Of a DNA stretch of 64,000 nucleotides, positions 9,967 through 31,802 are shown in pieces. Within the stretch, counting starts at the first letter, position 1. Each line of letters begins with the position of its first letter. A program made the translations under genes and the position numbers. Source of the stretch: a virus. Below the pieces are notes generated by a model that saw only the letters and a program-made list of their open reading frames with translations, was not told where the DNA came from and did not search any database. The stretch spans positions 1 through 64,000 of the IMG/VR virus record IMGVR_UViG_3300042878_000903. The stretch is one strand, 5' to 3'.

Positions 9967-9993
9967 GGGCAGTTTATAGTCATGCCTAGGACC
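9967..9993 (-). ncRNA. candidate H-type pseudoknot element (copy 1)
   Basis: GGTC-CTAGGCAT-GACT-ATAAAC-TGCC; related to 30648-30678. Confidence 0.45.
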
Positions 9994-10009: not shown

Positions 10010-10126
10010 TTATTTAATCTTTGATTTTATCTTACTGTTAGCCTTTTTAAATCCTAGGCCATATGACCCTAGCATTAATAGAGCAATTGCTGAGGAATGC
10101 AATAAATAAAATAAGGATGTTCTCAC
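10010..10126 (-). CDS. 38-aa membrane peptide (GTG start, not in ORF track)
   Basis: Overlaps katG stop; hydrophobic stretch then Lys-rich tail. Confidence 0.45.
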
Positions 10127-30016: not shown

Positions 30017-30628
30017 TTACTCCACGGGATTTTCATATAGATATGCAGAAGTTACAAATCTTTCACCTGAAATAAGAGTTTTAACACCATGCTCTAAATT
30101 ACTAGGGAATATTAATACCGAAGCCGTTTCTGGCTTTACAATTAAATTTAAATCAGGAAATTCTAATTCGCCGCCATCAAAATTTTCGTTAAACCATAGA
30201 AGTGCTGTAAACGCTGGCTCAAGGCCAACTCCACCATCATTATGTGCAAACATAAATGACCCTTCTGTATATTTACGCACAACCATATTTTTTTGATCTA
30301 CCCAAGTACGTTCTGGCATCCAATTTATATCTATATTATTCTCAATTGGCGATGTAATATTTAAAGAAAGCCTTTCTTTATTTTTTTCAACATAATCTTC
30401 AAATACATTTTTAAATATAGCCATGACGTCATAATAATGACTCATATTTGGCCAAACAATCACAGCGGCGCCTTTAATTCCACTATGGCATTCTGTACCA
30501 TCTGGATTTAAACCATTTGTATATTCAAACCAATTGTTTTGTTCTTGTATTTTTTTTAACAATATAGAGATATTTTCATCTACATTTTTATAATACCAGA
30601 TATCCTCCGTCAGCCTAACGTGTTCCAT
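30017..30628 (-). CDS. 2OG-Fe(II) oxygenase
   Basis: HND, FDGGEL.FP, HGV...GER. Confidence 0.85.
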   Translation of the reverse strand: MEHVRLTEDIWYYKNVDENISILLKKIQEQNNWFEYTNGLNPDGTECHSGIKGAAVIVWPNMSHYYDVMAIFKNVFEDYVEKNKERLSLNITSPIENNIDINWMPERTWVDQKNMVVRKYTEGSFMFAHNDGGVGLEPAFTALLWFNENFDGGELEFPDLNLIVKPETASVLIFPSNLEHGVKTLISGERFVTSAYLYENPVE

Positions 30629-30647
30629 TTTTCTCCTTTAAAATAAA

Positions 30648-30744
30648 GAGCAGTTTTTAAAAAGTCATGCTCAGGACTATGTCAGATATTTAACGTCGCT
30701 GTCTCCTCCGACAAATCTGCGACTCCCCGATGAAGGGGTGCAGA
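30648..30744 (-). ncRNA. candidate structured ncRNA or leader (two hairpins plus pseudoknot)
   Basis: TATAAT at 30750-30755; GC-rich paired stems in an AT-rich genome. Confidence 0.5.
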
Positions 30745-30758
30745 ATACTATTATACTA

Positions 30759-31802
30759 CTAAACCCTACTACCAGACTCTCTAGCAGAAGATGGGGAAAC
30801 CTCTATATACTCCAAATTACTTTGAAATTCTTTTATATTAGGCGCACCTGAATATGTAAATGCGCTTCTTATATTATTCAATATATTGTATATGCCTTCT
30901 AATGCTGGGCCTTTAGGATTTACTTCACCAGTAACCCCTTCAAAGCTTATTATAGGATTTTTTACATCCTCTATCCCTTTTTCTTTTAATATATATTCCC
31001 TTGATGCCAATCCACTAAGATAATATTTCCCGTCTATGGATTCGCATTCGTTATGTCCAGCAAGCATCGATCCTAGCATAACAGCACTTGCACCAGCACC
31101 CAAAGCCTTTACTATATCGCCAGAATTTTTAATACCGCCATCTGCAACTATTCCATTTACATAATCATTTTTTACATGTTCATAAATATTCATTATAGAG
31201 GCTAGCGTTGGCGCCCCAAAGCCCGTTACAAGCCTTGTAGTGCAGGCTGCGCCTCCTCCTATTCCTACACGTACAGAATCAGCTCCAGCATCCATTAGCA
31301 TTTTGTATGCACCGTACGACGCTACATTTCCACACATTATATGTGTGCTAGATGGCACCATTGATCTTAAATCAGATACACAATCTGCTGCTAACTTTAA
31401 ATGTCCATTTGCAACATCTAATAAAATAATCTTAATTCCTTTAGAAACAATTATATCTATTGTTTTGCAGTCATAAATATCTGCAGTAGTTATTGTTATT
31501 CCAATTGTATTTTTGTTTATATCACAGGATTTTTTTAACTTTATGTCTAAATTTTCTGACCTACATGTCATTCCAATTGATCCAGATTTATTAAGTGCAT
31601 AAAGCATTTCATAAGAAGATATGGAATCCATTGGAGCAGAAATAATAGGGCCATTAAGATTTAATATTGCATCTGGATTGTTTGGGTTGCCAATTTTTGT
31701 GGTCAGATCTATGTGCGATCTGCTTATTACTGGAGATGAATCATGAGGAATCAATAATATGTCGTCAAAACATAAACCATTAATTGAAGTATTTTTTTTC
31801 AT
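30759..31802 (-). CDS. guaB: IMP dehydrogenase / GMP reductase family (no CBS domains)
   Basis: FDDILL.P, SAPMD, D.A.GH, GNV, VGIGGGAACTTR, ADGGI, MLGSMLAG. Confidence 0.88.
   Translation of the reverse strand: MKKNTSINGLCFDDILLIPHDSSPVISRSHIDLTTKIGNPNNPDAILNLNGPIISAPMDSISSYEMLYALNKSGSIGMTCRSENLDIKLKKSCDINKNTIGITITTADIYDCKTIDIIVSKGIKIILLDVANGHLKLAADCVSDLRSMVPSSTHIMCGNVASYGAYKMLMDAGADSVRVGIGGGAACTTRLVTGFGAPTLASIMNIYEHVKNDYVNGIVADGGIKNSGDIVKALGAGASAVMLGSMLAGHNECESIDGKYYLSGLASREYILKEKGIEDVKNPIISFEGVTGEVNPKGPALEGIYNILNNIRSAFTYSGAPNIKEFQSNLEYIEVSPSSARESGSRV

Follow-up and report, generated by a model that had tools for sequence, protein, structure and literature searches.

A modular promoter-proximal RNA with a covarying H-type pseudoknot in a phage genome, and the distribution of its pseudoknot among phages

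The leader gap, its promoter box and hairpin 1

We analysed a stretch of 64,000 nucleotides, hereafter called the window, which corresponds to bases 1-64000 of a complete virus record of 109,968 bp (IMGVR_UViG_3300042878_000903) and in which all the large open reading frames (ORFs) lie on the minus strand. A leader gap of 130 nt (30629-30758, minus strand) separates an ORF of the IMPDH/GMP-reductase family upstream (30759-31802; PF00478, E 6e-68) from a 2OG-Fe(II) oxygenase ORF downstream (30017-30628, minus strand; Pfam PF13640), after which comes a thermonuclease-like ORF. The gap contains a -10 promoter box, a first hairpin (hairpin 1) and two further elements, module 1 and module 2. Behind module 2 lies a segment of the minus strand (30626-30647) made of a spacer, a Shine-Dalgarno (SD) sequence (30633-30638) and the oxygenase start codon (30626-30628).

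The preliminary description of this DNA had reported a GC-rich stretch that was not a tRNA and was not recognised as a named RNA family, and these points held. The G+C content of the gap is 0.46-0.47 against about 0.3 in its surroundings, and no tRNA or tmRNA was detected at the leader site. A search of 401 nt with Rfam 15 returned nothing relevant at the leader, either at the gathering threshold or at E<=10; across the window, five tRNAs were the only Rfam matches. A scan of 30300-31100 for intrinsic terminators gave no terminator-like site. The single-sequence fold energy of the leader is ordinary (z = -0.92), even though the hairpins described earlier appear in that fold, so that the support for the structure of the leader comes from the comparison with relatives and not from thermodynamics.

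Inside the IMPDH-family ORF, the segment 31056-31166 (minus strand) shows 78-79% DNA identity to unannotated short records (PQ519979, OR846609, OR846961 and others) that are labelled as Enterococcus and Listeria phages. The probable source of this similarity is either conservation within guaB/guaC or host sequence contained in the phage entries.

The TATAAT box is present at 30750-30755 on the minus strand, as had been stated, and lies inside a conserved TAGTATAATA. A generic promoter scan did not call this site, and its assignment comes from conservation. Among relatives, a TA(T/C)AAT box stands upstream of module 1 in 81 of 94 distinct contexts, and some loci carry a full TTGACA-17-TATAAT promoter or an extended -10. 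The distance to the first helix is fixed, with 6 nt between the box and the CUGC of hairpin 1 in 43/48 cases and 5 nt between the box and module 1 in all 27 cases where module 1 follows directly. From this fixed spacing we infer that the RNA should begin at the foot of the helix.

Hairpin 1 (30716-30744, minus strand), the 5'-terminal stem-loop, is built from an outer stem (30740-30744 with 30716-30720) and an inner stem (30735-30738 with 30725-30728, loop 30729-30734), and it contains an asymmetric internal loop. It had been proposed from the window alone, and the covariation of its inner stem (C-G/U-A/A-U/U-G) now supports it: in 26 distinct versions, one pair is C-G in 16 and U-A in 6, another is C-G in 18, U-A in 5 and A-U in 1, and a third is C-G in 19, U-G in 5 and U-A in 1. 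Hairpin 1 is optional among relatives. Protective 5'-terminal stem-loops with a geometry like that of the first helix after the -10 box are known from the ompA and B. subtilis leaders.

Module 1 and the modular cassette

Module 1 (30683-30713, minus strand) is defined by the conservation of its pattern and by covariation of its closing pair. Its hairpin pairs 30709-30713 with 30694-30698 (5 bp) and has a loop of 10 nt (30699-30708) that is invariant and holds an SD-like GGAG; an A-rich linker (30686-30693) and then CUG (30683-30685) come next. This register replaces the second hairpin of the preliminary description, in which 30707-30713 paired with 30680-30686: that pairing gives 73.8% paired cells, no better than shuffles (488/500). 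The closing pair of the conserved hairpin is U-A in 18, A-U in 15, U-G in 6, C-G in 2 and G-U in 2 sequences, and it is the one position of this hairpin at which covariation was seen. The CAG of the loop (30699-30701) and the CUG behind the linker (30683-30685) are complementary in 100% of the sequences and never vary, and a search of IMG/VR for a CAG variant of module 1 returned none. Module 1 could form a second pseudoknot through this CAG:CUG complementarity; since the pairing is invariant, we treat that pseudoknot as putative.

The 18-nt pattern of module 1 was found in more than 117 IMG/VR viral contigs, and once in the 109,968-bp genome. Among 185,579 species genomes it gave seven matches, of which only two lie in phage-like contigs of metagenome-assembled genomes (MAGs); four others are coding coincidences, three of them in pyruvate-kinase-like genes, and one is an unrelated match in a Pedobacter contig. 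An element that is invariant over 18 nt in more than 100 diverged contigs and restricted to phage-like DNA points to a specific partner.

The two MAG contigs, in Bacteroidia EUL_060 (L134) and Chitinophagaceae RE-18aug17-154 (L137), are 23-24 kb long, belong to Bacteroidota bins and carry phage-like genes. They are either mis-binned phage contigs or a hint at the host. The DnaE of the window phage resembles the DnaE of Streptomyces phages (57% identity), which, together with the strong SD usage, conflicts with the Bacteroidota bins.

Another possibility is that the promoter-proximal RNA works on RNA polymerase during transcription or brings a factor to it, for instance in processive antitermination like that of the HK022 put RNA or of nut, with module 1 as the recognised element. 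Its place as first or second element behind the promoter and its invariance in more than 117 contigs would suit such a role, and 7 nt of the invariant loop are not required by any helix. The cassette is also independent of the identity of the downstream gene and, read by eye, part of the 3' strand of the module 2 stem S2 and the bases after it resemble the start of rrn boxA at some loci. However, the likeness to boxA fades after 5-6 nt and varies among relatives, and we rejected rrn boxA or nut-like bases after S2 as an explanation on the grounds that the similarity is short and not conserved. The scan of 30300-31100 found no terminators that would be overridden, no candidate binding protein was identified, and Rfam detects no similarity to put or nut RNAs. 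We regard an antitermination role of module 1 as very improbable.

The arrangement of the modules was followed at other loci. Relatives of the oxygenase gene were found at 12 IMG/VR loci, five with the same leader bearing few substitutions and seven with only a -10 box, a short 5' hairpin and an SD sequence; the middle part is thus a cassette that some leaders have and others do not. Its order in relatives is -10 box, optional hairpin 1, optional extra hairpin and module 1, and then either module 2 or a different, longer RNA. It usually sits behind the stop codon of hsp20, and the genes after it are those of a thermonuclease, a Zn-ribbon protein, a Dps-like protein, an oxygenase, a kinase-like protein or an HNH protein. 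The idea of a leader specific to the oxygenase gene is not supported, since the cassette precedes varied genes and close oxygenase relatives are without it. What the phage homologues and their covariation do support is a conserved, structured, promoter-proximal RNA. At some loci the leader RNA stands directly before another promoter, and the reading as a phage sRNA that had been offered earlier is possible.

Several neighbouring arrangements were observed. At L006-L010:2750-3000, two tRNA genes take the place of the IMPDH-family gene before the oxygenase and the leader consists of a -10 box and a short 5' hairpin; in L006 an isolated copy of module 2 is also found elsewhere, ahead of a kinase-like gene, at about 4541. 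A second class of RNA shares the promoter and module 1 and continues with a different structured RNA of about 110 nt (L026:2920-3060, minus strand; also L014, L023, L052, L058, L074, L085, L088, L094, L097, L103, L106, L119 and L120). It has a 12-bp long-range helix, after which come another promoter and an HNH-like gene, and Rfam returned no match for it. At L137:4800-4975 (minus strand; also L038, L066, L106 and L120) there is a third small RNA, which has a separate TATAAT box and terminates in a copy of module 2 with a 10-nt loop. It is flanked by the class-A RNA and the class-B RNA, so that in some phages hsp20 is followed by three small RNAs in a row, each driven by a promoter.

Module 2: fold, distribution and genomic settings

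Module 2 (30648-30678, minus strand) is an H-type pseudoknot with compensatory covariation in both stems. Stem S1 has 4 bp (30675-30678 with 30663-30666) and encloses a loop of 8 nt (30667-30674) that reads C-U-G-A-G-C-A-U (CUGAGCAU) in the window and in most relatives. Stem S2 pairs the loop (30668-30672) with the bases at 30648-30652, beyond an A-rich linker (30653-30662).

The structure set consisted of 53 distinct sequences fetched through module 1 alone, and is therefore unbiased for module 2. In these sequences the revised structure model pairs 95.5% of cells and scores 0.210 for covariation, versus 0.083 in shuffles; none of 500 shuffles reached the score of the model. Stem S1 takes the form N-GUC/GAC-N'. 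Its three inner pairs are paired in 100% of the sequences and two of them covary, switching between U-A and A-U (34/19) and between G-C and C-G (41/12); at the fourth position, which also covaries, 76% of sites have a canonical pair.

For S2, IMG/VR was scanned with one loop base forced to be different and its partner left free, and the pairs were counted with our own anchored script; MAFFT does not align the variable A-run. The partner compensates in 24 of 25 cases in the first scan (A-U 18, U-A 4, C-G 2; one U-U), and in the second scan a standard pair is present in all 87 (G-C 84, C-G 1, U-A 1, G-U 1). Pairing reaches 97% in register versus 22-38% when the strands are slid. This compensation, with the switches in S1, establishes the terminal H-type pseudoknot that the preliminary description had drawn.

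The conserved bases of module 2 are those that build the fold, namely the CU of loop L1, the AAAC of the linker and the G-C-rich S1, and the sequence of S2 is free to change if complementarity is kept. In the pattern-based sets AAAC and a U are fixed by design; the spacer before AAAC is 2-12 nt long, GUU is the commonest preceding triplet (31/226), and the 3' part reads UGCUC. These fold-building bases and the freedom of S2 favour a structural or mechanical role over a sequence-specific ligand. The base before the S1 3' strand is U, A or C among relatives, which, together with the fold-required nature of the conserved bases, speaks against the ligand riboswitch suggested at first; so does the presence of the same knot after stop codons, before tRNA genes, before promoters and in unrelated phages. 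A ribozyme had been a further suggestion, and no known ribozyme family matches. We consider it unlikely that the structure is a ribozyme, a riboswitch that senses a ligand or a product of chance.

A second, solitary copy of module 2 lies at 9968-9993 (minus strand), behind the katG unit and ahead of the promoter-like site that follows, and its S2 is GGCA:UGCC, a compensatory change. In a structural scan of the whole genome no copies turned up apart from these two, whereas shuffles give an expectation of 0.65. The space from the katG-like ORF to this knot is filled by an ORF of about 38 codons (10010-10125, minus strand) with a GTG start and a hydrophobic core, which falls below our list of ORFs of >=60 aa.

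Outside this genome the module is widespread. The sets were fetched by exact patterns, so that parts of the motif are fixed by design and the counts are lower bounds: the exact pattern of module 2 gave at least 120 matches in IMG/VR and the GGGC:GCCC variant at least 120 stretches, with 84 distinct G-C sites. In all, IMG/VR holds hundreds of intergenic copies, five of them in one contig. BLAST of the 30-nt knot against GenBank phages hit 178 records, and the carriers are phages of Staphylococcus, Bacillus, Mycobacterium, Arthrobacter, cyanobacteria, Roseobacter and Vibrio as well as crAss-like phages. Among phages whose hosts are Firmicutes, Actinobacteria, cyanobacteria or alpha-proteobacteria the knot is common. 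It is practically absent from E. coli, of which 5,426 complete genomes gave one weak match, and the match in coliphage ST32 is doubtful.

Individual GenBank loci were read by eye. In Arthrobacter phage Molivia the knot lies 7 nt past the SSB stop codon, and a tRNA called by ARAGORN starts 3 nt later; in Nostoc phage NMeng1 it stands immediately before a tRNA, and in Roseobacter phage SIO1 behind a ribonucleotide reductase gene. Mycobacterium phage Labelle, Bacillus phage Edson and a group of Vibrio phages also carry it. In Staphylococcus Phietaviruses (about 85 Staphylococcus phage records) it occurs between the minor-head and scaffold genes. The crAss-like phage cr7_1 (NC_055895.1, L397:560-640) has two tandem copies upstream of its DNA primase gene, the first with S1 GAG/CUC and S2 UAGCA:UGCUA. 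In the gut phage NatCom_3357 (PV036416.1; L141:1201-1384) the knot at 1201-1227 adjoins a DUF2800 RNA at 1228-1384 (RF02960, 136.6 bits), and the DUF2800 RNA may have an unrecognised 5' partner. On seven knot-bearing phage loci, Rfam found only tRNAs and this adjacent DUF2800 RNA. In the phages B166 (NC_028859.1, L395:701-742) and B122 the site of the knot is annotated as a promoter predicted by BPROM; this annotation probably mistakes a conserved RNA element for a promoter.

Start-codon spacing is kept at the loci where an SD sequence follows the knot. The knot ends 19 nt before the start codon in the window, and 17-21 nt before it in 35 of 39 SD-led relatives. Because an anti-SD segment (30645-30650) overlaps the 3' strand of S2 (30648-30652), module 2 might be a translational switch, in which the formed knot would leave the SD free and the open knot would let it be sequestered, the state being set by temperature, a protein, Mg2+ or a small ligand. 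The alternative SD hairpin takes up 3 nt of S2 and has a predicted energy of -4.5 kcal/mol in the window, and a CUC(C/U)U-to-SD hairpin is predicted in about half of the 39 SD-led relatives, down to -8.3 kcal/mol. In the other half it is negligible (0 to -2 kcal/mol), and since the SD is always complementary to CUC some pairing is expected by default. The AU-rich flanks, which co-change (UAAA/UUUA versus UUAA/UUAA), the tight spacing to the start codon and the link of the family to hsp20 neighbourhoods would agree with a switch. On the other hand, the knot is widely used with no SD after it, before tRNAs, before promoters and in SD-less leaders, and we found no conserved, pocket-like unpaired bases specific to the SD context and no evident ligand pocket. 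A switch is accordingly judged improbable.

The wider set of 228 distinct sites, with ORFs called by a simple longest-ORF rule, gives another picture of where the knot is placed. Half of the sites (114) lie between co-oriented genes, 15 have a co-oriented gene upstream only and 13 have one downstream only. The distance from stop codon to knot peaks at 6-7 nt (41/228 sites) and is never below 5 nt; many sites are related by descent, so that this peak does not represent independent events. At 16 of the 228 sites a tRNA gene on the same strand starts 3-14 nt after the knot, mostly 3-7 nt. Directly behind S2, 67% of sites have an A, and there is no U-run; G makes up 6-8% of the bases at +1 to +7, and the following 30 nt carry less structure than the controls do.

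Such settings raise the question of a function at the 3' end, where module 2 would be a cap or boundary element shielding the RNA upstream of it from 3'->5' exonucleases. Read-through transcripts would be cut, either within the unstructured region that follows the knot or by RNase P at an adjacent tRNA, and the upstream product would retain the knot at its 3' end. An RNA of about 95 nt (hairpin 1, module 1 and module 2) would then be a stable small RNA or a by-product, and the knot would also insulate downstream folding and translation from upstream events. The position just past stop codons, the 15 sites with an upstream co-oriented gene only and the G-poor, weakly structured 30 nt behind the knot count in favour, and where a tRNA follows after 3-14 nt, RNase P would leave a tail too short for 3' exonucleases. 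The knot that adjoins the DUF2800 RNA, the other small RNAs that end in a knot, the second copy of the window upstream of the next promoter, and several loci where another promoter of the extended -10 form and a start of the leaderless type come right behind the RNA are of the same kind. In the window, however, no promoter lies between the knot and the SD sequence (10 nt further), so that the oxygenase must be read from the RNA that contains the knot. The 13 sites with a downstream co-oriented gene only are also contrary to a cap. Terminating ribosomes would melt a structure 6 nt past a stop codon, which is unusual for a 3' stabiliser, and with no U-tract the knot is no intrinsic terminator. 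We consider a cap or boundary role rather unlikely as the explanation of the module, although the stop-codon, tRNA and promoter contexts suit it at least as well as a role at the 5' end. For a compact triplex knot, a 5' shield and a 3' cap are not mutually exclusive.

Two further candidates were discarded in the course of this comparison. A tRNA-like acceptor mimic, made of the knot and ACCA, was rejected with ACCA after the knot in only 9/226 sites. A read-through or frameshift signal was rejected on an example with a gap of 6 nt, read by eye, in which the extended frame meets a stop after about 14 codons, in or just past the knot.

A possible protective leader, and its relation to known RNAs

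The reading that we favour, tentatively and by analogy, is that the gap encodes a modular and portable leader that would block 5'-end-dependent mRNA decay. Transcription would start about 6 nt after the -10 box, so that the RNA would begin with a stem-loop and have no single-stranded 5' tail, and hairpin 1 at the terminus would deny access to the 5' end. Two compact modules of the pseudoknot type with A-rich linkers come next, the last one ending 19 nt before the oxygenase start. The GGAG of module 1 may hold a ribosomal subunit, and module 2 would be a mechanical roadblock to enzymes that move 5'->3', as coremin-type xrRNAs stop Xrn1. Candidates for the blocked enzyme are the exonuclease RNase J and, where the host is without RNase J, a scanning RNase E; the outcome would be a long-lived mRNA for the downstream genes. 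Such a leader fits the combination of a helix at the predicted 5' end, a displayed GGAG and a knot at a fixed distance before the SD, and the start-codon spacing, kept in 35 of 39 SD-led loci despite differing downstream genes, agrees with it. Also in its favour are the host phyla of the phages in which the knot is common, its near absence from E. coli genomes, the features that module 2 shares with coremin, and the blocking of RNase J1 by a flaviviral xrRNA and by initiating ribosomes, both described below. Against a 5' shield are the sites at which module 2 has no co-oriented gene downstream (15/228) and those directly before tRNA genes (16/228). A group of Vibrio phages carries the knot, and Vibrio is expected to be without RNase J, which also counts against this reading.

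It is possible, but doubtful, that module 2 represents the first xrRNA-like class of bacteriophages, a triplex knot of about 27-31 nt that would halt 5'->3' decay or scanning and whose core would be shared with coremin by descent or by convergence; the RNA of the window would then link this knot to a second, invariant one and to a hairpin capping the 5' end, as a transferable cassette that stabilises mRNA. If such a roadblock were true, programmed exonuclease resistance would reach DNA phages and bacterial RNA decay, and a 30-nt, sequence-defined tool for the stabilisation of bacterial mRNA would be at hand. It would also explain conserved "orphan" intergenic sequences in S. aureus Phietaviruses, mycobacteriophages and crAss-like phages. 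Even if the mechanism is wrong, module 2 is a very widespread phage RNA motif, proven by covariation and missing from Rfam, and its function is directly testable because cultured carriers exist. In the literature we found no description of the module 2 motif or of xrRNAs in phages.

The leader as a whole resembles the 5' stabilisers of Gram-positive bacteria (5'-terminal stem-loops and STAB-SD or ribosome-bound leaders) in having a helix at the predicted 5' end of the transcript. It also shares with STAB-SD-type leaders an SD-like GGAG far upstream of the real SD, with varied genes behind. Unlike in those leaders, the GGAG of the phage RNA lies in the loop of an invariant hairpin or pseudoknot, within a mobile cassette of three modules. 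Initiating ribosomes at strong SDs, as in B. subtilis hbs, are reported to block RNase J1 (PMC5737220).

In the sizes of its stems and loops and in its A-rich third loop, which probably lies in the minor groove of S1, module 2 is like the preQ1-I aptamer and the frameshift knots of the BWYV type. The preQ1-I aptamer (RF00522) was rejected as an identity, with no match at E<=10 and with the position of the ligand-reading C varying between U, A and C. In contrast to BWYV-type knots, module 2 lies outside a reading frame and does not follow a slippery site. The serial arrangement of compact pseudoknotted units in the cassette recalls the tandem xrRNAs of flavivirus 3' UTRs. A flaviviral xrRNA stops bacterial RNase J1 in vitro and blocks unrelated 5'->3' exonucleases (PMC5760640), but it is a three-way junction of about 70 nt with a ring fold and has no homology to module 2 in sequence or secondary structure.

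The closest resemblance is to coremin (xrRNA_C) of plant, fungal and insect RNA viruses, which is made up of a hairpin of 3-5 bp whose stem is GUC/GAC, a GUUAAACUAC-type spacer and a second hairpin; it stalls both Xrn1 and ribosomes that scan, and it promotes frameshifting (PMC6546385, PMC10520033). In the Watson-Crick variants of coremin, some selected and some natural, the loop pairs with the spacer, for example GGAG-CUCA (PMC10321173). Module 2 likewise has a short hairpin with a GUC/GAC stem, its S1 of 4 bp lies within the 3-5 bp of coremin hp1, and GUU followed by AAAC, the commonest form of its linker, corresponds to the GUUAAAC type of coremin. Whereas the spacer of coremin is conserved over about 10 nt (GUUAAACUAC), that of module 2 varies in length and ends in UGCUC, its AAAC and U being fixed by the search pattern. 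Loop-linker pairing is common to both, being non-canonical in coremin, of three Watson-Crick pairs in xrRNA_WCC and of 4-5 bp in S2 of module 2, which shows the antiparallel loop-spacer pairing of xrRNA_WCC. Both elements are very small and often tandem or intergenic, and the overall H-type geometry resembles that of luteovirus frameshift knots.

Two features set the phage knot apart from coremin. The 8-nt loop of module 2 departs from the coremin loop rule YGAD/YGNNAD, its second base being U and not G. Coremin needs its second hairpin (hp2) for resistance to Xrn1, whereas module 2 has no conserved one: a hairpin of this type (>=4 bp, 0-3 nt after S2) occurs at 31% of 213 sites, against 27% in 30 nt taken 100 nt downstream and 28% in shuffles, and this lack of enrichment is evidence against a coremin-like shield. 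For these two reasons we do not file module 2 as a member of coremin. The phage knot, moreover, belongs to DNA phages of bacteria, which have no Xrn1. Module 2 may nevertheless work like coremin.
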